Of a stretch of 64,000 bases of DNA, positions 28,152 through 41,100 are shown piece by piece. The translations under genes were made by a program, and so were the position numbers. A model generated the notes under the pieces. That model was not told where the DNA came from. It worked only from the letters and a program-made list of their open reading frames with translations, and searched no databases. Source of the stretch: Candidatus Paceibacter sp. (GTDB lineage: Bacteria; Patescibacteriota; Minisyncoccia; UBA6257; JAGOQP01); the NCBI GenBank assembly GCA_020724905.1, contig DYGB01000001.1, forward strand, positions 1,866 to 65,865. Direction: 5' to 3'. Every line of letters begins with the position of its first letter. Positions within the stretch are counted from its first letter, which is position 1.

Positions 28152-29249
28152 TTATGAGCGTGCATCTATAATGCGAGCACCTCCAAGTAACTGTCCCTTT
28201 TTATTATAAAAAACACACGATTGTCCCTGAGCAGGAAATGTCTGGACAGGAGAAGAAAATACAACAGAAAGGCCCTCTCTGTTGACAAGTGTCGCTGCAA
28301 GTGAAGGCTGTCTATATCGAGTCTTCACATACACAGGAACTTCACCTTTTTTTGCAAGCTGATATTCTGTTTGCGTATCTAGTATATTGGAACTCCCCAA
28401 CACTATTTCTGAAGTGTACGTAGAAGTATGATCAAATGGTGCTACATACAATGTGTTAGTGGTATCATTCTTTGAAACAACATATAGTGGCCCTGGACGA
28501 TCATGGGTAAATCCATGCCTCTGTCCAATAGTATACAGATGTGTCCCTTCGTGTACCCCAATAGTTGCTCCTTTCTCATCAATAACAGAACCTTCTTTTG
28601 TACCAAGGTGTTCTTTAAGAAAATCTCGAAAGTTAAACTGTCCTAAAAAACATACTCCCTGAGAATCTTTTTTATCTGCGGTAGGGATAGCATTCTCACG
28701 AGCAATACGACGAATCTTTTCTTTTTTATACTTCCCTATCGGAAACAACAGAGAGGGAAGAACAGCTTTATTAATATCCCACAAAAAATATGTCTGATCT
28801 TTATTCTCATCTTTCCCCTGATAGATACGATGTGTATGACCCCAATGGGTAATACGTGCATAATGGCCAGAAGCGATATACTCAGCCCCTAGTGAAGCTA
28901 TCTGATCATAGAGAAGACCAAACTTAATCTCACGATTACACACAACATCAGGGTTAGGAGTTATTCCTTCCCGATATCCTGTAAGTAAATAATCAACAAC
29001 TCGTTTCTTGTATTCTTTCTCAAAATCAAATACATAAAATGGTATAGAAAGGGTACGAGCAACAGCAGCTGCATCACGTGCATCCCTATCCTGACACCCA
29101 TCAACATTGTATCCTCGTATAAATGCTCCAATAACAGAGTATCCTTTTTTCTTTAAAAGAAGAGCAGCTACAGAAGAATCTACTCCCCCAGAAAGAGCAA
29201 CTAAAACTTTAGGCTTAAGTGTGGTATATCTATTCCAAATACGATTCAT
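28152..29249 (-). CDS. mnmA: tRNA-specific 2-thiouridylase MnmA.
   Basis: VLVALSGGVDSSVAA PP-loop, with the remainder conserved. Confidence 0.85.
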   Translation of the reverse strand: MNRIWNRYTTLKPKVLVALSGGVDSSVAALLLKKKGYSVIGAFIRGYNVDGCQDRDARDAAAVARTLSIPFYVFDFEKEYKKRVVDYLLTGYREGITPNPDVVCNREIKFGLLYDQIASLGAEYIASGHYARITHWGHTHRIYQGKDENKDQTYFLWDINKAVLPSLLFPIGKYKKEKIRRIARENAIPTADKKDSQGVCFLGQFNFRDFLKEHLGTKEGSVIDEKGATIGVHEGTHLYTIGQRHGFTHDRPGPLYVVSKNDTTNTLYVAPFDHTSTYTSEIVLGSSNILDTQTEYQLAKKGEVPVYVKTRYRQPSLAATLVNREGLSVVFSSPVQTFPAQGQSCVFYNKKGQLLGGARIIDARS

Positions 29250-29274
29250 ATTAATCTTATACTAGATACTCGCA

Positions 29275-30180
29275 TTAGTCTGATCGATTTGCACCATCGT
29301 ATATATATTTTTCACTGATTTTCCAAACACCTTTCTCTCGAAACGCTGGAATGTTTTGACGTCGAGCAGCATTAGTCATAGCAGGAGCAGACTTGCTATG
29401 TTTTTTTATATATTCAGACAAAGGAATAATAGGATCACCTCTTAGATAAGTAATTCGTTTATGTAAAGATTCTATGAGAGCAAGAGACACCACCTTTTCC
29501 ATCGTTTTAGTATTTTTATCATCACGATAATCATCAAAAGACCTATAATATTCTTTTTTCTCACTGTCCCGAATAATAATCATTGGAAACCCAAGTCGTT
29601 GAAGCTGAAAACAAATAAGTACACGACCGATACGACCATTCCCATCACAGAATGGATGAACTGTTTCAAAATTCAAATGGAACTTAACAATTTTGTCTAG
29701 AAAGTATGTAGTAAAATCACTCGTATATTCGGTAAGAATAGATTCAATCATGCGCTCAACATGCTCTGGAGCAGGTGCGACATGGGTACCAACTCGAACA
29801 TATTCTCCCTCAGTTCTAAATCGGCCAGCAATATTATCATCAATACCACCGATAAGCATCTGGTGCAAAAGCAAAATAATCTTTTTATTTATTTCTGTCT
29901 CTTGAGATTTGTTACGAACATATCCCATAACACGGGCAAGATTTTTCGCCTCAAACACCTCTCGAACTGAAACGTCTCGAGCAATTTCCATATCTAAAAG
30001 AATTTTTTCTGTTTCCTTTAGGGTGAGTGTAGAATTTTCAATAGCATTAGAATTATAAACACTTTCTGGCACCTCAGCTTCATCAATCATAACCAAAAGT
30101 GATTCTTTGTCTTTGCGGAGTGCATCAAACTCAGCTTTAAGAGCTGTTATTCGATCTTTAATTGGTTTAGTTGTTGCCAT
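29275..30180 (-). CDS. Fic-family protein with canonical HPFCDGNGR and an N-terminal inhibitory (S/T)xxxE(G/N) helix motif (SNAIEN).
   Basis: The Fic motif HPFCDGNGRIGR and the upstream SNAIENSTL motif are seen directly. Confidence 0.8.
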   Translation of the reverse strand: MATTKPIKDRITALKAEFDALRKDKESLLVMIDEAEVPESVYNSNAIENSTLTLKETEKILLDMEIARDVSVREVFEAKNLARVMGYVRNKSQETEINKKIILLLHQMLIGGIDDNIAGRFRTEGEYVRVGTHVAPAPEHVERMIESILTEYTSDFTTYFLDKIVKFHLNFETVHPFCDGNGRIGRVLICFQLQRLGFPMIIIRDSEKKEYYRSFDDYRDDKNTKTMEKVVSLALIESLHKRITYLRGDPIIPLSEYIKKHSKSAPAMTNAARRQNIPAFREKGVWKISEKYIYDGANRSD

Positions 30181-30329
30181 AGACTTTTTTACTACTATGC
30201 ATCTATTATAGTCTATTCACGTAAAAAAGTCAATCTTTAGTGAATGAGAGCCATATATTGCATGCCATTCACTAAAATATGGGCAATTAAAGCCTCTATA
30301 CACTACTCTGCTTAGAAAATAGCCTGTAT

Positions 30330-30902
30330 TTATACTCCTTTCTCTACTCGTTCAACGTATTCTCCCGTTTCTGTATTAACTCGAATAATATCCCCTGTTT
30401 GTATAAAAAATGGAGTATTGACTCGAGCACCTGTCTTTACCGTCACTGCTTTTGACCCTCCTGATGCAGTATCTCCTTTTATACTTGGGGGAGCTTCAAT
30501 AACTTCAAGATCAATTTTTGCAGGAAGCTGAATCCCAACAAAAGTATCATTAAACCAGATTGAAAGAATTTCTGTCTGCTCAACAAGATAATTTTTCTTC
30601 TCTCCAATCTGTTCATCTGAAAGTGAAAACCTGTTTTGAGGATTTCCCACTTCATCAAACCACCACTCTCCTTTACGAGCATACAGGAAACGAGCATTCA
30701 TTCTTTCAAGATCAGCTTCTCCAATATCATCACTTGGCTGAAATGAAAGTTCTTTTACTTTTTGTCCGATAACGTCACGAAGTTTTACCTTCATAACTGG
30801 CTTTCTCTGTTGCATGCGCAAAAAAGAAGCTTCGAGAACTTCATAAAGAGTTTCTTCAAAAACGATAAACATGCCTGGACGAACTTCATTATATGAAATC
30901 AT
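30330..30902 (-). CDS. efp: Elongation factor P.
   Basis: MISYNEVRPGMFIVFEETLYEV... matches the EF-P N-terminal KOW region and OB domains. Confidence 0.85.
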   Translation of the reverse strand: MISYNEVRPGMFIVFEETLYEVLEASFLRMQQRKPVMKVKLRDVIGQKVKELSFQPSDDIGEADLERMNARFLYARKGEWWFDEVGNPQNRFSLSDEQIGEKKNYLVEQTEILSIWFNDTFVGIQLPAKIDLEVIEAPPSIKGDTASGGSKAVTVKTGARVNTPFFIQTGDIIRVNTETGEYVERVEKGV

Positions 30903-30927
30903 AGATAGATGTAGTGTTACGTGTATA

Positions 30928-32379
30928 TTATTTGTCTTTCCCTAATGCCTTTCGAATAACGTCTTTTAACTCTTTGACTGCTGTAGGTTTCTTTTCTCTT
31001 TCCTTGTGAGGTTTTTTCTTCCTCTCATCTTGTTTTAGTGTTTCAGCGAGAGACCGCTCCCCCTGTCGCGCAATCATCTCAGCAACACGCTCATGACTTC
31101 CAGCATATTCTTCCTGAATCTTTTTTTCAACCTCTCCTCGAGGAAGGGTAAACTTGTCACGAGAGTATTCCAAGATAACGTCATAGAGTGATTGTTTGGG
31201 GAGCGGTGGTGGAGGCAGTGTTCGAGCTGAGAAAGGACGAGATGACACCCCATCAATCATCAAACGGATATAGATATAGGTATTAGGAAGATTCACAAAA
31301 TCACTCGCCTCAAATTCCTCAAAGAATTCTTTTTCTAAAAATTCTGCATCATCTGCTCCTACCCGAAATACAATCATTGTTCCCACGTTACCAAAAATAG
31401 CAGATTTCACCCGTTCATTGTCATCAAGCTGATCAATATACTGGTGAGCAAGAATCAAACATAATCGATACTTTCGTGCCTCAGAAAGAATCGTTGCAAA
31501 TGATTCTGTTGCAAAGTTCTGAAACTCATCAACATAGAGATAAAAATCACGTCTCTCTTCTTGAGGAGTATCAACACGAGACATCGCAGCAAGCTGAAGT
31601 TTCGTAATAACCATAGCTCCAAGAAGCGCGGAGTTATCTTCACCAATTTTTCCTTTTGAAAGATTCACCACAAATATTTTCCCCTCATCCATGATACGTC
31701 GTGCATCAAATGATGAGTGTTCTTGTCCGATAATATTTCGAATCAACGGATTGGAGACAAACTGTCCCACCTTGTTCTGGATTGCAGCAACGGCCTCTGT
31801 TTCAAGTCGTTGTGTATAGCGAGCAAACTCATCAGCCCAGAATGAACGAACGATAGGGTCCTGAAGATTATCAACAATATTTTTCCGATACTCTTTATCA
31901 GAAAACATCTTCATAATCCCGAGCAATGTCGAATTAGGATACTCCAGCAATGCAAGAAGCGTATTGTTAAGAATATATTCCATGCGGGCAGACCAGGCAT
32001 CAGGCCATATCTTTTTAAACACAGACATAAGTCCAGAAGCAACCAAATGTCTTTGTTCAAAATCAACACGTTCAAGTGGATTAAATGCGATGGGGTAATT
32101 TGTATCAGCAGGGTTAAAATACACTACATCATTAACCCGCTCTTCAGGAATAAAGTGAAGTACTTCTTCAGCAACCTCACCATGTGGATCAACAATACAG
32201 ACTCCCTTCCCTGCTTTGATATCAGAAAGAACCATATTCAAAAGCAAGGTACTTTTCCCAGTACCTGATTTCCCAATGACATACATATGCTGTCTACGGT
32301 CAGCAGTTTTTACACCAAATATCCGTTCTTCATTTCGAAACGTTGTTTTCCCAAGGTGTAGAATATCTTTTTCATCCAT
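30928..32379 (-). CDS. P-loop ATPase of the FtsK/HerA/TraG superfamily (AAA_10/DUF87-like, T4SS coupling-protein-like).
   Basis: Walker A (YVIGKSGTGKSTLLLN), CIVDPHGE, Walker B (LYVDEFQNF) and ARKYRLCLILAHQYIDQL. Confidence 0.6.
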   Translation of the reverse strand: MDEKDILHLGKTTFRNEERIFGVKTADRRQHMYVIGKSGTGKSTLLLNMVLSDIKAGKGVCIVDPHGEVAEEVLHFIPEERVNDVVYFNPADTNYPIAFNPLERVDFEQRHLVASGLMSVFKKIWPDAWSARMEYILNNTLLALLEYPNSTLLGIMKMFSDKEYRKNIVDNLQDPIVRSFWADEFARYTQRLETEAVAAIQNKVGQFVSNPLIRNIIGQEHSSFDARRIMDEGKIFVVNLSKGKIGEDNSALLGAMVITKLQLAAMSRVDTPQEERRDFYLYVDEFQNFATESFATILSEARKYRLCLILAHQYIDQLDDNERVKSAIFGNVGTMIVFRVGADDAEFLEKEFFEEFEASDFVNLPNTYIYIRLMIDGVSSRPFSARTLPPPPLPKQSLYDVILEYSRDKFTLPRGEVEKKIQEEYAGSHERVAEMIARQGERSLAETLKQDERKKKPHKEREKKPTAVKELKDVIRKALGKDK

Positions 32380-32394
32380 AGCTTCACTATACCA

Positions 32395-33597
32395 CTATTC
32401 AAGTGGCAAATTAACTGGAGGCGTACCTTTACGAGAATCAATCTTTCCAAGACGAGGAGCACGAACTGATGAGAGAGGAAAATGAAACAGTGTTGCCAAC
32501 TCTTCTGAAGAGAGTATAGGGAACGTTTCATCAACCAAACGATTCGTATATCCAAACCGTCGTGTCTTAAGATAATCAAAGAGAATACGTTTTTTCCGTA
32601 ACATCGTTGTTTTCTTTATCTTAGGAAACAACTTCATCTTGATTCCTCCTGCAACAGTAATCAATTTGTCAGGACGAAGACCATTCATGTGCTGTGTATT
32701 GAATTGTTGCAGTGATCCCATAACTGATGAAATGTTAAGAAAGCTAAAACTATCTTTCCGATCAATATAGACGAATCGAAGATTAGCCTGGAACACATGT
32801 TTTGATGCTTTGTTCTCAATTGCTCTTATCACATCCCTATCTCCTCCTGTCATATCAGATTTTCCTTCTTCATCTTTCTTCTTTTCAATAATAGCTTTAA
32901 TTTCTTTTTGGGCGTCATCTTTGATAGAGACACCTGTTGCAGGACCCGTTGGACTTATCAAAAGCTGTATACATACCATCTCATCATCTTTCAGTTTTGA
33001 CATTGCTTCAAACAATGGAGCAAGAGGATCAATACGTTCTTCCTCCTTTGAAAGTTCATGGAAAAAATCATGATACGTACGAATAGGATACACACTGTTT
33101 TTCACAAGGGTAAATCCTGATCCCCAAAGATCATAGGTATCATCAGGAAGTGTTGCGGGAAGATCATCCATGTAGTCTGTTGTCTCAGATATTTCAGCAT
33201 CAGGATATTGGGCATAGAGTGCTGATTCTACAAGATTTCGATAATCTTTTGGTGTACGAACATAAAAAGAAATACCTCCTCCTCGAGCAACCATCTCAAA
33301 AGAAATCCATATGTCTACTTTTCCATCCAGATACTTGTTTAACGCAGGAATTCCAAATGAATAAATACCAAATAAGCTCGCAAATACTTGCTCCATTGAT
33401 TTTGGGCCTCGTGCCTCCCCATGAGGAATACGAATCTGTAATATATTCCATTCAATTCCTTCTATAAACAAATATCGTTTATAAAAAAGCCGCATTTTCC
33501 AACAGAGAACAGCGGCAAAAATAGGAACAACAATCCACAGAGCAACAGAGAGTGCTTTATATACACCGACAATAAGAATATCCTCTAAAAACGGCAT
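32395..33597 (-). CDS. Membrane-anchored hypothetical protein (two N-terminal TM helices plus a ~330-aa soluble domain), the partner of the downstream ATPase.
   Basis: The N-terminal hydrophobic segments are seen directly. The gene is packed tightly between the HTH gene and the ATPase gene. Confidence 0.4.
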   Translation of the reverse strand: MPFLEDILIVGVYKALSVALWIVVPIFAAVLCWKMRLFYKRYLFIEGIEWNILQIRIPHGEARGPKSMEQVFASLFGIYSFGIPALNKYLDGKVDIWISFEMVARGGGISFYVRTPKDYRNLVESALYAQYPDAEISETTDYMDDLPATLPDDTYDLWGSGFTLVKNSVYPIRTYHDFFHELSKEEERIDPLAPLFEAMSKLKDDEMVCIQLLISPTGPATGVSIKDDAQKEIKAIIEKKKDEEGKSDMTGGDRDVIRAIENKASKHVFQANLRFVYIDRKDSFSFLNISSVMGSLQQFNTQHMNGLRPDKLITVAGGIKMKLFPKIKKTTMLRKKRILFDYLKTRRFGYTNRLVDETFPILSSEELATLFHFPLSSVRAPRLGKIDSRKGTPPVNLPLE

Positions 33598-33600
33598 AAA

Positions 33601-34635
33601 TTATGCAAGATGATAGTGTCCCTTATCGTTTTTTTTGAAAAACTTTTTATTCTGCAAATTAAGGAAAATAGTATTGTATTTCAATACACGTTCCTGAGAA
33701 ACAAGACTTACAATATCTTCAAGAGGAAGTGAACCGTGCTTCTTTAAAATACGTTGTAACACTTCACGTGTTGTTCCTGGTTCAACACCAAACTCTCGAA
33801 GAGAATACAGTCCTCGTCCAACCAACACAAATCGCTTATCTTTTATCAATTCATTATGTACTGTTTGAGGATGAGCTTTCTTTGTATCAAATTCAATATC
33901 ATTAATATGTTGTGCAATGTCACGAAAGTGCATTGGTTCTTTTCTTTTCTTCAAAATCAAGTATGACTTGTCACGAACTGTTTTTGGAGTAATCTCAGGC
34001 CATTCTACAAGTCCAAAATCTCCAAATGGATTTACTGAAAACTTCTTTGAGTTTAACAAATAGTTAAGCGCAATAAATTCTTTAATTTTGTGTTGTTTTG
34101 TTGCCTGAGCAAATAACTGATCAAATTCTTTTCTCTCAACCAACATTTCTTTTTTACTCTTAAGAAGTGTTCGTACTTTCTTTACAAATGATTTCAATTC
34201 TTTTACATGCTCTTCTTGGGTATACCAAAATGGATAGAACTCACTATTCTCTCCAAAAATCTGAGGCTTTTTAAAAGTAGCGAATAGTAATGAAACGTAT
34301 GGTTCGCTCACATCATGATCTTTAAAGACGAATTTCAAGTCATCAACTAATAAATCTGCGCGACGAATACCACCAAGAGAGGCGATATGATCAAGTGCCT
34401 TTTCAAGAAATGAAACAGCATCAGCATTATCCTGAGCTTCTCCTCGGATAGATTTAAGTGCTGCGTTTTCAATTTGACGAACTCGTTCTCGGGTAATTCC
34501 ATATTCTTCACCAAGAGAAGCAAGCGTCTGAGGCTCTTTCCCAAGTAATCCGAATCGACGAACAACAATATCTCGCTGTCGTTTTGGGAGCGAGGAAACG
34601 AGAGAATCCAATGTAGAATGTAATGTCATACTCAA
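33601..34635 (-). CDS. DNA-binding protein with an N-terminal sigma-70 region-4-like HTH and a C-terminal HARE-HTH-like domain.
   Basis: The N-terminus (RQRDIVVRRFGLLGKEPQTLASLGEEYGITRERVRQIENAALKSIR) matches the sigma70 r4.2 consensus. The C-terminus (FRDIAQHIND...HPQTVHNELIKDKRFVLVGRGLYSLREFG) matches the HARE-HTH pattern. Confidence 0.5.
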   Translation of the reverse strand: MSMTLHSTLDSLVSSLPKRQRDIVVRRFGLLGKEPQTLASLGEEYGITRERVRQIENAALKSIRGEAQDNADAVSFLEKALDHIASLGGIRRADLLVDDLKFVFKDHDVSEPYVSLLFATFKKPQIFGENSEFYPFWYTQEEHVKELKSFVKKVRTLLKSKKEMLVERKEFDQLFAQATKQHKIKEFIALNYLLNSKKFSVNPFGDFGLVEWPEITPKTVRDKSYLILKKRKEPMHFRDIAQHINDIEFDTKKAHPQTVHNELIKDKRFVLVGRGLYSLREFGVEPGTTREVLQRILKKHGSLPLEDIVSLVSQERVLKYNTIFLNLQNKKFFKKNDKGHYHLA

Positions 34636-34686
34636 TAAAATTATACCACTAATTATACTGTAGTTTTCAGGTAGTGTCTATATACC

Positions 34687-35583
34687 TTACTTACTTTTAC
34701 CAGATTTGTACCAAAGAGTCAATAGGGGGCTGGCAACACAGATCGATGAATAGGTTCCCACCAATGTCCCGATCAATACAATTAAGACAAAGAAGTTCAA
34801 ACTCACTGCTCCAAAGAACAGTAGTGCAAGCAGGACAAGGATAAGGGTAAGTGAGGTATTAATAGAACGAACCAATGTCTGAGAGATACTCTCCCCTACC
34901 TTTTCTTCAAAAACATCTCCCTTTTTCATATGTCCAATATTCTCACGAATACGGTCAAAGACCACAATCGTATCATGTACAGAAAATCCCATGATAAAGA
35001 GGATTGCAACAATAAAGTTGCTATCAAGCTCAATCCCATTGAGGTTCCCTAAAAATGCAAGTAGTCCAGCAGGGATAATAACATCATGAAAAAGTGTGAC
35101 CAAAGTGACAACCCCATATTTCCATGAAGTTATTGGGTAAGAAACCTTTCGAAATGCAAACGCGATATACAAAGAAACAGCAACAAGAACAAGTATCACT
35201 GCCCAGATAGCACGAGAACGAAGTTCTTCCCCCACCGTAGGACCAATAAATTCGAATCGTAACTCTTCAAATGCCCCCGCAGATTCTTCAAGTGCAGCTT
35301 CAAGAACTGGCTTTTCATCTTGGCTCAACTCTTTCATCTTTATCAACAAAAGTCCTTCTTCAGACAAGTCTTCAAAAGCTGATACATCAACAGCTCCTGC
35401 ATCCTGCAAGATACGCACTACCTCATCTTTAGAAACCTCCTCTTCAAAAGAAAGTCTCCAGAGCACTCCTCCAGTAAAATCAGTTCCTGGACGAAATCCA
35501 AAGACAGCGATACTCACAACACCAGCAAGAACTAACAATGCTGAAATACTCAAAAATATTTTTTTATATCGAATAACAAACAT
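34687..35583 (-). CDS. secF: Protein translocase subunit SecF.
   Basis: SecF TM topology and conserved N-terminal region. Confidence 0.85.
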   Translation of the reverse strand: MFVIRYKKIFLSISALLVLAGVVSIAVFGFRPGTDFTGGVLWRLSFEEEVSKDEVVRILQDAGAVDVSAFEDLSEEGLLLIKMKELSQDEKPVLEAALEESAGAFEELRFEFIGPTVGEELRSRAIWAVILVLVAVSLYIAFAFRKVSYPITSWKYGVVTLVTLFHDVIIPAGLLAFLGNLNGIELDSNFIVAILFIMGFSVHDTIVVFDRIRENIGHMKKGDVFEEKVGESISQTLVRSINTSLTLILVLLALLFFGAVSLNFFVLIVLIGTLVGTYSSICVASPLLTLWYKSGKSK

Positions 35584-35584
35584 A

Positions 35585-36823
35585 CTATTTTTTATTACGA
35601 GAAAATACGATCATAAGGTTTCGCGTTACGACAATAGCGGTAAACATGCTGATGAGCACTCCTAAAAGAAGTGTTAGAGCAAGTCCTTTCACAAAACTTG
35701 AAGTGAACTGGAAAAGAATCAGCGCGGTAATCATAGTAGTAATATTCGAATCTCGAATTGATGGCCACGCACGAGTAAATCCTTCAGATACTGCAGCCAA
35801 ATACGATGAACCTTTTTTAAGTTCTTCTTTAGTTCTCTCAAAGATAAGAATATTAGCATCCACTGCCATACCCACAGAAAGAAGAAATCCTGCAATTCCT
35901 GCAAGGGTAAGGGTCACAAATAATTTAAATACTGAAAGCGTTAAAATAACATAGATAAGCAAAGCAATCGTAGCAAGTACACCTCTCCCACGATAGTAGA
36001 TAATCATAAAGAGTGCGACTGCTAAGGTACCCAACATACCAGCAAATACAGATGCATCGAGTGCATCTTTTCCAATATCAGCACCAACGTTCTGCTGACT
36101 GATACGTTCGATAGGAGCTGGAAGCGCTCCCGCATTAAAGCGTGAAACAAGTTCTTTGGCTTCATCTAAATTAAAGACTCCACTAATCACTGCTTCGCCA
36201 CTTGGGATATGTTCATTCACCCGAGGTTCACTAATTGGTTCTCCATCAAGGAAAATACCAACAATGTTTCCAATGTTTCTCTTTGTAACATCACTAAAAA
36301 TACCAGACCCTTCAGAGGTGAATGAAATAGTCACCTGTGGTTCTCCTGTTGTAGGATTAAATGAAAGCTGAGCTCCTTTAACATATCGTCCATCAAGTTC
36401 AGTAGGAATATATCCAACCGTTCCATCCTCAAGTTCTGTTAATTCACGAAAATCAAGAAATGGTGTTTCTCCAATTTGACGAACTGCTTCATCAATATCA
36501 GAAACTCCAGCAAGTTCAACGATAAGACGATATTCATCTCCACTTTGGGAGATAGAAACCTGAGGTTCTTTTACCCCAAACAGGTTCACTCGTCGTTCAA
36601 TAACATCTCGAAGTCCAGAAAGCGTGGTAGAAACATCATCTCCAGAGAGATGAGATGTGTCAACGTTGTACTCAAGTCGAGTACCACCGACTAAATCAAG
36701 TCCAAGCTTCCAATCAGTGCTGTTATACAACCATGAGGTATAAGGGGTTGGGTAAATAAAAAATGCCCCCACAATACTCAAGGCAACAACTCCTAAAAGA
36801 AACCATAGTGCCTGCTTTTTCAT
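35585..36823 (-). CDS. secD: Protein translocase subunit SecD. The start is trimmed to MKKQALWFLL because the longer frame overlaps the glycerate kinase gene.
   Basis: A SecD periplasmic domain plus a C-terminal 6-TM bundle. ATG at 36823 gives a signal-anchor N-terminus. Confidence 0.85.
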   Translation of the reverse strand: MKKQALWFLLGVVALSIVGAFFIYPTPYTSWLYNSTDWKLGLDLVGGTRLEYNVDTSHLSGDDVSTTLSGLRDVIERRVNLFGVKEPQVSISQSGDEYRLIVELAGVSDIDEAVRQIGETPFLDFRELTELEDGTVGYIPTELDGRYVKGAQLSFNPTTGEPQVTISFTSEGSGIFSDVTKRNIGNIVGIFLDGEPISEPRVNEHIPSGEAVISGVFNLDEAKELVSRFNAGALPAPIERISQQNVGADIGKDALDASVFAGMLGTLAVALFMIIYYRGRGVLATIALLIYVILTLSVFKLFVTLTLAGIAGFLLSVGMAVDANILIFERTKEELKKGSSYLAAVSEGFTRAWPSIRDSNITTMITALILFQFTSSFVKGLALTLLLGVLISMFTAIVVTRNLMIVFSRNKK

Positions 36824-36866
36824 ACAAGGGATATGATACCACAAAAGAGAAGAAGAGCAAAGAACA

Positions 36867-38144
36867 TTACTTCCGTGCAACAACAATTAAATCAGACACA
36901 TTAAGACATTTCTGTTTAATAGTAACATGACCACCTCGTTCTTTAAAAAAGTGGTATGAATTATGAGATTTTACATATGAAGGATCAATATCCTTTGCAT
37001 CAGCACTACATCCAATCGCTCCTGCAACAGGAACATTATCTTTCCCATCAGAAGCAATACTCCCCACACAGATATCTCCTTTAAGAGACTGTTTGGAAAG
37101 TTCAGAAAGTGCTCCTAGTACTACCTCCTGATTTCTTCCCCCTTCTCCACCTATGCATCCTGATACTAAGCTCTCCCCTCCAAATAGATACATTTCTCCT
37201 GGACGAATTGTAGTGAGGTATGGAGAAAGAAGCTTCGATGCCTCCCCCTGAAATGCAGTAGAGATAATTTTTGTTTGAAATCCTTCTTCTCTTCCCTTCT
37301 CAAGCATCGCAACAAGAGCATCTTCATTACATGCTAATAACAATGCACGAGATCTTTCAAAAATACGTTCATCTTTTACTGTTTCTTGTAAAAAAGGAAT
37401 CGCATCATGACATTCATATTTCTCAAGAATCGCCACCGCATCTTCTTTTCGTGACGCATCAAAGACGCTTGGACCAGAAGCAACAGTCCCTAAATCATTT
37501 CCACAGACATCTGAAACAACAAGGGATAGTATTGTTGCAGGATACGCAGCTTTGGCAAGACCACCTCCTTTCACAGAAGAAAGGTGTTTTCTGACAATAT
37601 TAATTTCTCTAATCTGAGCCCCTTTGTTGGTAAGTCGTTTAAATAAATCGCTCCCTACATCTTTTTCTTTTTCATCTCCACAGAGAAGAGAAGATCCTCC
37701 ACCAAGGATAAGAAAAATAACTAAATCATCCTCACTACATGTTTCAAGAACAGTAATAATGTGTTGTGTTGCCTTAATATTAACATCAGAAGGATGAGGA
37801 TGTGTTCCCTCATACACCTGAACCATCTCATGAGTAGAGATACTAGAAGCATATCCCTTTACATCAAGTGCGTAAGCTTCATCTACCCCCTCAACGTGGC
37901 CAGAAAAAAGAGAAACAACTCCCCGAGCACCCTTCCCAACCCCTACCACAACAACTCGTTTAAAATATTTTGTATCGTAGATATGATCGTCCCCTTTAAT
38001 AGAAAAAGAATGGTCACGAACATGAATCTTTTGAGGAATAATATGCTCCATATCAATCGCCTCAAGTCCAGCATCAAAAACACGAATAACCGATGATCGT
38101 AAATCATCTTCCCTTACTCCTTCCCTCTCTATAATATAGGACAT
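36867..38144 (-). CDS. Glycerate kinase of the MOFRL family (DUF4147 plus MOFRL).
   Basis: VVVGVGKGARGVV, LLCGDE..., and glycine-rich C-terminal motifs typical of MOFRL glycerate 2-kinases. Confidence 0.65.
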   Translation of the reverse strand: MSYIIEREGVREDDLRSSVIRVFDAGLEAIDMEHIIPQKIHVRDHSFSIKGDDHIYDTKYFKRVVVVGVGKGARGVVSLFSGHVEGVDEAYALDVKGYASSISTHEMVQVYEGTHPHPSDVNIKATQHIITVLETCSEDDLVIFLILGGGSSLLCGDEKEKDVGSDLFKRLTNKGAQIREINIVRKHLSSVKGGGLAKAAYPATILSLVVSDVCGNDLGTVASGPSVFDASRKEDAVAILEKYECHDAIPFLQETVKDERIFERSRALLLACNEDALVAMLEKGREEGFQTKIISTAFQGEASKLLSPYLTTIRPGEMYLFGGESLVSGCIGGEGGRNQEVVLGALSELSKQSLKGDICVGSIASDGKDNVPVAGAIGCSADAKDIDPSYVKSHNSYHFFKERGGHVTIKQKCLNVSDLIVVARK

Positions 38145-38145
38145 A

Positions 38146-41100
38146 TTATTTCTTTACCCCTATTGTCATCGATGTTCCTCTCAACGAAAGTTCTTTTTTG
38201 GCATCAACAGACGTGCCTGGTTCATACACAAATGCAACTGCATGAACTTCTTTTTTAAGTATACGCTCATGATTCTTCAAAAACGAGATAACATCATGGT
38301 GCCCCTGTATATGAAGGGTAATCTCATCATGAAATGCATATCCTGCATCTTGTCGAAGTCCTTGTACGAAACGAATAAATTCACGAATATCTCCTTCATC
38401 TTTAAGGTCTTCACTTAATGTCGTATCAAGAACGAAGTCTTCTTCTTGAGATACTCCAAAAACAATGCGCTTCACATTCACCTCATCTTGGAGAAGCGTA
38501 ATAAGTTGTGATGCATAGGTACCAGTCAATTTCTTTCGTTTACATGAAAGTGTTGCAAGTGGTTGACGCACCTTTATCTGAGCGCTTGCTCGTTGTGCAA
38601 GCACTTCACTTGCAGCATCCCTAACCCACTGCATATCAGCGATAAGTTTTTTGTAACGTGTATCAAAGCCATGTTCTGGCCATCCTTCAAGGTGAACTGA
38701 ATCAGCTCCTTTGATGGTGTAGAGATTTTTAAGTGACTGATAGAGCGCCTCTGAGAAAAATGGAATAAAAGGAGCGGTAAGTTTACTCAATGAAAGTAAT
38801 ACATAACCAAGTACTGAGGATGTCATCTCCCATTCTTTCTTTGTCTCAGGTTTTTGTAATCGTCGTCGAGAACGACGGATATACCATCGAGACATGTCAT
38901 CAACAAATGTTTCAACAGCAGATGAGGCACGGGTAATATCATACTCATCCATAGCATCTTTTACGATCTGCTCTGTCTCTCCCAATCGTGCCAAAATCCA
39001 TACATCAAGCACATGCTCACTTTCAGGTGCAGCGGAAAGAGAAAGTTTCTTCTTTCCATATAGTTCAAGGAATGAAAATGAGTTGTACATAACAAGCAAG
39101 AATCGTCTCAAGATATTCCCCACATCAGCTTCATCAAAATTCTTTGGTTCTCCTGGAGCATTGATAGTAAAGAAATACCAACGAATTGCATCGATACCAT
39201 ACTTTTCAATAAGTGCCCATGGGTCAACAACATTTCCTTTTGACTTAGACATTTTCTGTCCATTCTTATCAAGCACCAATCCAAGAGACACCACATTTTT
39301 GTATGGTGTTCCTAGTCCCAATAGAACTGCTGTTGCCATAAGGGTATAGAACCATCCACGTGTTTGATCAATTCCCTCAGAAATAAAGTCTGCAGGAAAT
39401 CCATGTGGCTTTTTACCCTCTGCCTTAAAAGGAAAGTGGGTACTTCCATACGGCATTGAACCAGAATCAAACCACACATCAGCAACATCAGGAACTCGTT
39501 TCATTACCTCTCCAGAATCAGAACGTAGGAAAACCTCATCAACATAAGGACGATGCATATCAATCATACCAAGCGCATCAATAGGGAGGTTATCAGAAAC
39601 ACAAGATACATATCCTCCCGTAGGAATAAAGTGTTTCTTTTCTTTCTTTATCATTTCCTCCATTGATAGATGTTCCATGACAGCACGAAACATACGAAGC
39701 GTATCTCCATGACTTACCACTGCAATGGTCTTGTCTGGATATTTCCTCTGCATCTCTTTGTAAAATTCTGTTACCCGTACACGAACATCATGTAGTGATT
39801 CAGCTCCCTCAGGAGCATCCATAACAGGATCGATATCTTTTTGAGAAAAGAATCCATAAAATTCAGAAATAGCTTTATGTGCATATATTCCTGCTTCTCG
39901 TTCTTTAATACGCTCATCAACAATGACACGCTTTACCCCAAGTTCCCGAGAAAGAAGCTCAGCTGTTTGTTTCGTTCGAGTATAAGGAGAAGAGACGATA
40001 ATATCAACATTCTCTTGTACAAGCTTTTTGGCTAAATGAGCAACTTCTTCTTTTCCTTTCTCGGTAAGACGGGAGGTATATTCTTTTGTTTCCTTCCCTG
40101 AAGCCCACCATCCTTCAACATTGGCACGAGCTTCTCCATGACGAATAAGAAGGAAGGTATTACTATGAGCACGATATGTCGTGAGATCTTCTAAGCTCTT
40201 TACCACCCGAATTTCTCCTGTATCAGATTTCCAGATAGGAAGTGGCGTACCCCAGTATCGTTCACGTGAAATTGCCCAATCTTTTGCCTGCGCAATCCAT
40301 TCTCCAAAACGCCCCTCTTTAATATGTGCAGGAACCCATGATACTCCTTTATTTGCTTTAAGAAGTTCTTTACGAAGTGAAGACACTTCAAAAAACCATG
40401 CTCGACGAGCCCAATAGATAAGAGGTGAAGAACAACGCCAACAAAATGGATATTCATGATCGCCGTGACCTCCCTTAAGAAGCAATCCCTTTTCTTCAAG
40501 GTATGCACTAATAACACTATCAGCCTCCTTTATCGGCTTTCCTTCTCCAATGCATCCTTCTGCTACTTTCCCATCAGCGGTAATGGTCTGAGGAAGTATA
40601 TGTTCTTCCTTAAGACCATCAGGAAATACAAGTGAAAAATCATCCTCTCCAAAACTTGGAGCAATATGAACAAGACCAGTCCCCTCATCGGTAGAAACAA
40701 AGTCAGCGCCACGAACATAATAGCGATCAAATGGTAAAGATACCTCTCCTTCATACGGAACAGCGGGAAGATACTCCCATCCAACCATCTCGCTTCCTTT
40801 CTTTTTTACCTTACTTGTTTCTTCATATCCTTCAGGAAGCTTATGAGCCCATACCTTCTTTCCTTCAAGAGAAAACTGATGATATATCACCTTTGGATCA
40901 AGGGCGATAGCAACGTTTGCAGAAAGTGTCCATGGTGTTGTCGTCCACACTAATAAAAATTCATTCTTCTTCCCCTTGAGAGGAAAAAGTACGTAGACCG
41001 AAGGATCACTCACCGTTTGATATACTCCTGGTTGTCCTAACTCATGGTTTGCAAGTGCTGTTTGACAGCGATAACAATACGGAGTCACTTTATATGATTC

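Follow-up and report, generated by a model that had tools for sequence, protein, structure and literature searches.

A patescibacterial protein that joins a sigma-70 region 4 to four winged-helix-like modules, encoded beside a DUF8128/ATPase gene pair

The window analysed here, a stretch of 64,000 nucleotides from a Candidatus Paceibacter sp. contig, contains its organism's copy of a single-architecture protein family that is spread across the Patescibacteria. The 344-aa product belongs to the Sigma70_r4 and HARE-HTH domain families, and it falls outside both the sigma-factor and the delta-subunit protein families because defining features of each are missing. Since the family is widespread in Patescibacteria, since its counterpart is essential in one genome-wide screen and since it carries the promoter-reading part of a sigma factor, we regard the protein as a strong candidate for a core component of gene expression or chromosome handling that is specific to the lineage. 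Our preferred explanation, held tentatively, is that of a non-sigma, autonomous factor that binds -35-type DNA, probably regulates its own gene and is linked to an ATPase. Patescibacteria account for a large part of bacterial diversity; their genomes are tiny and hold few regulators, and molecular studies of the group are almost lacking. The family itself is already catalogued in databases and in a published essential-gene table, and our literature searches returned no functional study of it and no account of its mechanism.

Table 1. Features of the locus, in window coordinates
Feature	Position	Strand	Basis
Promoter-like site TAGACA-17-TATAAT just 5' of the gene	34652..34680	-	matches 11/12 consensus positions
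Sigma-4/four-winged-helix protein, CDS	33601..34635	-	ORF list, called genes, Pfam, AlphaFold
Module 1, aa 5-68, sigma-70 region-4 helix-turn-helix	34432..34623	-	Pfam, PDB RpoS/SigA region 4, residue mapping, alignment
Module 2, aa 69-139, acidic (pI 4.7), winged-helix-like	34219..34431	-	helix/strand order in the model, per-module pI, DPAM
Module 3, aa 140-212, basic winged helix (pI 9.6)	34000..34218	-	model, DPAM "winged" in the counterpart
Module 4, aa 219-282, HARE-HTH winged helix	33790..33981	-	Pfam; TIGR04567 below cut-off
Module 5, aa 285-344, C-terminal winged helix (pI 9.8)	33604..33783	-	model, hhalign
secD-secF, conserved upstream neighbours	34687..36823	-	called genes, synteny
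DUF8128 (PF26449) protein, 400 aa, N-terminal membrane helix and alpha/beta domain	32395..33597	-	precomputed Pfam, AlphaFold, Foldseek, synteny
Soluble TrwB/VirD4/TraD-like P-loop ATPase, 483 aa, without a transmembrane region of its own	30928..32379	-	Pfam, NCBIfam, PDB
efp (elongation factor P)	30330..30902	-	Pfam, synteny
Fic-domain gene	29275..30180	-	PADLOC
Promoter-like site of the Fic gene	30205..30233	-	matches 11/12 consensus positions
Isoleucyl-tRNA synthetase, 1156 aa	38146..41616	-

Domains and modular architecture

The open reading frame starts with a TTG at 34635, and the start used by the gene caller, recovered through an exact-sequence look-up, is the ATG at 34629, which gives 342 aa. 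A first-pass annotation, made from the sequence alone, had read residues ~15-65 as a sigma-70 region 4, and this holds: the Pfam Sigma70_r4 model (PF04545) matches aa 14-64 with an E-value of 1.7e-14 and 53.5 bits against a gathering threshold of 24.1 (hmmscan). HARE-HTH (PF05066), the second profile that the annotation had proposed to search with, also scores above its gathering threshold, at aa 219-282 (E 5e-8, 33.7 bits against 25.9). The domain is thus real, but it is not the C-terminal ~70 aa of the protein as had been thought, because another winged helix (aa 285-344) follows it.

The rest of a sigma factor is missing. No Pfam match to sigma region 1.2, 2 or 3 (PF04542 included) was found in the 344-aa protein, and the matches to NCBIfam sigma models and to PDB sequences cover the RpoS/RpoD/SigA region-4 segment alone, at aa 3-71. 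The NCBIfam sigma models are aligned by their last 60-70 positions alone and reach 40-55 bits, against family cut-offs of 240-800. The earlier statement that regions 2 and 3 are absent and that this is not a sigma factor is therefore upheld by Pfam and NCBIfam, and also by Southlakia epibionticum, the one genome covered here by a complete annotation table, where RpoD is a separate essential gene and the sole protein with a sigma region 2. Compared with RpoD, SigA and RpoS, region 4 here is N-terminal, stands without regions 1.2, 2 and 3 and is followed by four winged helices. The HARE-HTH module, for its part, matches the RNA polymerase delta model TIGR04567 with E 2.5e-8 but with 34.0 bits, under the cut-off of 42 (NCBIfam), and the sole solved delta matched by sequence is 8x6g_E of S. 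aureus, at E 0.18.

The protein had also been described as a two-HTH DNA-binding protein. Both HTH domains are present, but the count was too low: the AlphaFold model, built on 63 homologues (pLDDT 94.4, pTM 0.80), is confident and rigid for five HTH-type modules, the sigma-4 module (aa 5-68) and four winged-helix-like modules at aa 69-139, 140-212, 213-284 and 285-344. The HARE-HTH topology is readily followed in the model, with helices at 220-231, 237-247 and 256-265 and then wing strands at 269-273 and 276-279. All modules except module 2 are basic, and the protein as a whole has a pI of 9.5 and a net charge of +13. When all five modules were compared by hhalign, relatedness was detected between modules 4 and 5 alone, which appear distantly related (probability 83%, E 9e-6); a simple recent tandem duplication is thereby ruled out as the origin of the array.

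Module 2 is probably packed against sigma-4. Foldseek searches of the PDB gave as best matches chimeras of sigma-4 with the beta-flap tip, with alignments that extend beyond region 4, and in Wang et al. Table S2 DPAM treats aa 6-155 of SEML1_0294, which is the counterpart in S. epibionticum, as a single domain. The DPAM parse of SEML1_0294 as a tri-helical domain followed by three winged domains agrees with our model of the window protein. In Foldseek alignments restricted to region 4, the fold is the same as that of RpoD/SigA and RpoS, with 38-47% identity. Over the whole chain, tandem winged-helix arrays such as the SelB C-terminus (1lva) and UFL1/DDRGK1 (8b9x) are matched at E about 4-5e-4, values similar to those of the region-4 structures; this likeness is one of architecture only (TM 0.23, rmsd 11-17 A).

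The residues with which region 4 reads a promoter are kept. On the sigma-70 sequence, numbering and -35/backbone contact residues that we take as the reference, E. coli R554, R562, T572, L573, R584, E585, R586, R588 and Q589 correspond to R19, R27, T37, L38, R49, E50, R51, R53 and Q54. All nine equivalents are invariant or at least 90% conserved among 63 sequences reaching down to 45% identity, and those of R584, E585, R586, R588 and Q589 are invariant across the family alignment. The TRERVRQIE helix is kept in genomes of Parcubacteria, Peregrinibacteria and Doudnabacteria and in those labelled Saccharibacteria. By contrast, the sigma-70 residues contacted by activators, K593 and K597, are not kept in the window protein, where A58 and S62 take their places. 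In alternative sigma factors with other -35 targets, the recognition helix is different. Because the -35-reading residues are conserved here while such factors differ in that helix, the predicted target of the sigma-4 module is TTGACA-like DNA.

Family, essential counterpart and gene neighbourhood

A word-indexed search returned at least 7997 matches to the protein. Among the best 120 of these, 114 carry both Pfam domains and 115 are 339-354 aa long (range 312-369), at 45-96% identity, and every named match among those listed is patescibacterial (Paceibacterota, Wolfebacteria, Parcubacteria). When 1.84 billion cluster representatives were searched exhaustively with HMMER, 575 clusters (50% identity) came up at E <= 1e-30, and their lengths are almost all 330-380 aa. 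In GTDB species genomes, full-length matches occur in Parcubacteria, Kaiserbacteria, Doudnabacteria, Peregrinibacteria and Saccharibacteria-labelled genomes, and the other matches are to region 4 of ordinary sigma factors. The window protein shows the family pattern of about 340 aa, an N-terminal Sigma70_r4 and a HARE-HTH near 220-285. One cluster of the representative search departs from this length: according to Pfam, P0209 (659 aa) is SecF fused in frame to the sigma-4/HARE-HTH protein, which may be genuine, and would then place the protein at the membrane, or may be an artefact of read-through or of a frameshift.

SEML1_0294, the counterpart in S. epibionticum, is a 349-aa protein in which both Pfam domains recur. 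The Tn-seq data tabulated by Wang et al. 2023 (PMC10633639) score it as essential at all three time points, with 24 insertions in the input DNA and 1 at T0, and the tables mark its family as core and Patescibacteria-enriched. The text of that study leaves the gene undiscussed (PMC10633639). SEML1_0294 is the sole HARE-HTH (PF05066) protein of S. epibionticum. We see no difference in kind from the window protein: the two are of similar length, with the Pfam pair at the same positions, the same module parse and an adjoining gene for a T4CP-like ATPase. This adjoining gene, SEML1_0293, is non-essential (PMC10633639), and that SEML1_0294 is essential while the ATPase gene is dispensable speaks against the protein being only a component of the cassette. 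The ATPase occupies aa 361-795 of the 921-aa SEML1_0293, and from this length and these domain positions we infer that SEML1_0293 is a DUF8128-ATPase fusion. No such fused protein was seen in 96 loci or in the top 120 relatives retrieved with a second DUF8128 query.

As the first-pass annotation had suggested checking, homologues almost always precede the membrane-protein/ATPase pair. In the window, DUF8128 starts 3 nt past the stop codon of the sigma-4/HARE-HTH gene. Across locus samples in which relatives of the query are over-represented, DUF8128 is the gene directly downstream in 64 of the 70 evaluable metagenome loci (80 sampled; within 1.5 kb in 3 more) and in 15 of the 16 loci from genome and encoding-contig searches, a set that includes 14 GTDB genomes labelled as several CPR lineages; the ATPase follows DUF8128 in 38/46 metagenome loci, and SecF is directly upstream of the homologue in 42 of 56 evaluable ones. 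Several loci (L005, L007, L008 and L012) have DUF8128 without an adjoining ATPase, and a few loci have neither. In L004, L006 and L010, 340-390 nt separate the homologue from DUF8128, where 0-100 nt is usual. The ATPase is followed by efp in the window and in 4 of 15 other distinct loci, and the transcription unit probably ends with efp; no strong promoter was found on the minus strand from 34635 to 30330. The neighbours are secDF, efp, mnmA and ileS.

The AlphaFold model of the DUF8128 protein (pLDDT 90.4) has a long N-terminal membrane helix, and its best Foldseek matches in the PDB are TrwK/VirB4 of plasmid R388, with E 2e-5 but a TM of 0.40 and an rmsd of 8-10 A. The modelled fold thus appears to resemble the N-terminal domain of VirB4. 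The ATPase matches TrwB_AAD_bind (1e-14) and T4SS-DNA_transf (4e-13) in Pfam, a VirD4-like model in NCBIfam and TrwB among PDB sequences (2.8e-7). By sequence it is therefore nearer to TrwB/VirD4, while the DUF8128 model weakly matches TrwK/VirB4. As a pair they resemble a VirB4-type motor divided between two proteins. No VirB3/B6/B8 or other channel genes of a type IV secretion system are linked among the neighbours. Patescibacteria have been found to hold 5,713 VirD4-like genes, of which 148 are near virB4, and it was suggested that they were taken over for another function (PMC12102498). Pairing with DUF8128 and with the sigma-4/HARE-HTH protein gives a context to these thousands of orphan genes, and a split VirB4-type motor may explain them.

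Promoter-like sites upstream of the gene

The TAGACA-17-TATAAT site just upstream of the gene is, jointly with the site of the Fic gene, the best within 29000-38500 (9.5 kb). The survey of promoters covered sites 110-160 nt upstream of the homologue in loci L001-L016 and L083-L162; because some TTGAC words are codons of the SecF C-terminus (PLLTLW), coding DNA was masked and the statistics were repeated on intergenic DNA only, with genes of the same loci that have at least 40 nt of intergenic sequence upstream as controls. TTGAC precedes 77% of homologues and 15% of other genes. In this comparison, in which the loci are related by descent and many control genes lie inside operons, TTGAC-N17-20-TAnnnT is found upstream in 52/78 homologue loci against 32/345 other genes (67% vs 9%, Fisher p = 3e-25), and under a stricter promoter consensus the figures are 40% and 4% (Fisher p = 1.5e-15). 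A pair of TTGAC within 25 nt is present in 14 of the 78 homologue loci (18%) and before 1 of the 345 other genes (Fisher p = 2e-10); these tandem arrays have two or three boxes, spaced mostly by 8-12 nt (about 5-12 overall). The promoter signal persists in 32 of 49 clusters at 60% identity.

At the promoter of the window gene itself the -35 box reads TAGACA instead of TTGAC, and the window contains no tandem TTGAC. The upstream sites fit a gene that starts its own transcription unit and that may be regulated through -35-type boxes; a strong promoter in this place would also fit plain high expression.

Within the window, TTGACA occurs 21 times where 57.5 +/- 7 are expected from dinucleotide shuffles, and TTGACT has an observed/expected ratio of 0.24. 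As a signal of the family, TTGACA depletion was rejected: it is explained by shorter words and is absent from pooled related loci.

Possible roles of the protein

To explain these results we propose that a cytoplasmic, basic protein of five modules could act as an autonomous DNA-binding factor. Its sigma-4 module would read TTGACA-like boxes. The hydrophobic groove of this module would probably be covered in cis by module 2 and not by the beta-flap of RNA polymerase, because the Foldseek alignments run past sigma-4 on the flap-tip chimeras and because DPAM merges the corresponding part of the counterpart. The basic winged-helix modules might add contacts with DNA or with a partner, and, because regions 2 and 3 are absent, neither sigma-style binding of the core enzyme nor DNA melting is expected. 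We envision that the factor would act at promoters, its own included, where occupancy of the -35 box would compete with RpoD and establish a negative feedback. As the product of the first gene of a conserved unit, it would probably be functionally tied to the DUF8128/ATPase motor. The domains, conserved residues, gene order, promoter statistics and published essentiality are observations; DNA binding, target sequence, autoregulation and contact with the ATPase are what we infer. Several points speak against this proposal: conserved -35 residues are also expected if sigma-4 sits on RNA polymerase at promoters, strong promoters may reflect no more than high expression, the site in the window departs from TTGAC, and the tight DUF8128 linkage is unexplained by a purely transcriptional role. 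The autonomous factor, a delta-like subunit and an adaptor of the ATPase are not mutually exclusive. The roles offered by the first-pass annotation, namely an anti-sigma-like factor, a factor that interacts with RNA polymerase or a DNA-targeting component of the cassette, are likewise still candidates.

A module that keeps region 4 apart from region 2 has precedents. Sigma functions are split in phage T4 gp33/gp55 and in B. subtilis SigO-RsoA, and gp33 has lost its DNA-reading residues. As in these systems, the region-4-like module of the window protein stands on a polypeptide of its own; here, however, no region-2-like partner is seen and, unlike in gp33, the DNA-reading residues are kept.

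The protein could instead belong to RNA polymerase as an accessory subunit, the patescibacterial analogue of delta in Firmicutes. With sigma-4 on the beta-flap tip helix of core or elongating polymerase and the HARE-HTH placed as in delta, it would modulate promoter selectivity, recycling or the handling of nascent RNA. We consider this possible, if on the unlikely side. Sigma region 4 and the delta N-terminal domain both bind RNA polymerase in characterised settings, so that each recognisable domain of the protein has a polymerase-binding relative elsewhere. The E-value of the TIGR04567 match is in its favour, as is the best DPAM template for the HARE-HTH module of SEML1_0294, e7f75L1, which comes from a B. 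subtilis RNA polymerase complex (PDB 7f75); SEML1_0294 is moreover the only PF05066 protein of its genome, essential and in a core family, and one JGI record names a homologue "DNA-directed RNA polymerase delta subunit". Yet the score stays below the cut-off of the delta model (34 vs 42 bits) and the solved delta is barely matched. Compared with delta (RpoE of Firmicutes), with which it has the HARE-HTH in common, the window protein is basic and several times longer, and in place of an acidic, polyanionic C-terminal tail it ends in a folded basic winged helix. Placed on the flap, its sigma-4 would compete with RpoD region 4 for the same site, and both the invariance of the DNA-reading residues and the linkage to DUF8128 would be left unexplained.

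This linkage is the starting point of another explanation, to which we give a somewhat lower, doubtful standing: the protein would serve the neighbouring split VirB4/T4CP-like membrane ATPase as its DNA-recognition or adaptor subunit, loading a DNA translocase on specific sequences or orienting it there, be it for chromosome handling or for the uptake or export of DNA. The near-constant DUF8128-ATPase succession downstream and the 3-nt gap in the window point this way, and so do the likeness of the DUF8128 model to TrwK/VirB4 and of the ATPase to TrwB, the single 921-aa ATPase protein that neighbours the counterpart in S. epibionticum, the SecF fusion of P0209, which would put the protein at the membrane, and the large number of VirD4-like genes away from virB4 (PMC12102498). 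On the other hand, the ATPase gene SEML1_0293 is non-essential and SEML1_0294 is essential, several loci lack the ATPase beside DUF8128 and a few lack both. Since the flanking secDF and efp have housekeeping roles, operon inertia could account for part of the conserved order, and DUF8128 at the N-terminus of SEML1_0293 is deduced from length and domain positions.

Winged-helix modules that recognise DNA are known from translocases of this group, as the gamma domain of FtsK and the wHTH of Streptomyces TraB. As in FtsK/TraB-type translocases, the winged helices of the window protein are tied genetically to an ATPase of the FtsK/HerA/VirB4/VirD4 group; the differences are that they belong to a separate protein, that this protein also has a sigma-4 module and that its counterpart is essential though the ATPase is not.

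A true alternative sigma factor, as automatic annotation would have it (Prokka names SEML1_0294 RpoS; PMC10633639), is very improbable: the region-4 similarity to RpoS/RpoD is strong, but region 2/3 is missing, the scores fall far short of the sigma-family cut-offs and region 4 is N-terminal with winged helices making up the remainder, and we reject this identity on domain content. HARE-HTH domains are common in restriction and BREX-type systems. We nonetheless also reject, as more improbable still, an anti-phage defence or mobile cassette, for which this commonness, the resemblance of the ATPase to HerA- or TraD-type proteins and PADLOC matches to MzaA (region-4 segment alone, E 1.9e-7) and mad8 (ATPase, E 8e-19) could be cited, since this is a core gene with an essential counterpart and a fixed place between secDF and efp across phylum-level lineages, with no linked nuclease, methylase or mobility genes and no PADLOC match for DUF8128.

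A bolder extension of the autonomous factor, which we think quite unlikely, is that Patescibacteria have an essential, lineage-specific second -35 reader, a free-standing sigma-4 module on a scaffold of winged helices, that marks or occludes TTGACA boxes independently of RpoD and might tether promoter or chromosomal DNA to the membrane-anchored, split VirB4-like motor. If true, such a reader would constitute a general layer of transcription or chromosome organisation without counterpart in studied bacteria. In the genetically tractable Saccharibacteria, a role of the protein in gene expression or chromosome handling is open to direct test.

Two other genes of the window deserve mention. The Fic-domain gene lies between efp and mnmA and has a promoter-like site of its own (Table 1); in a 68%-identical relative, mnmA comes directly after efp, without a Fic gene between them. 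Because it matches the PADLOC candidates PDC-S04 and SoFic (E 4e-35), it resembles a small defence or toxin gene inserted at this place. In the isoleucyl-tRNA synthetase, a His_Phos_1 domain (E 2e-32) is inserted at aa 489-655, inside the catalytic domain.
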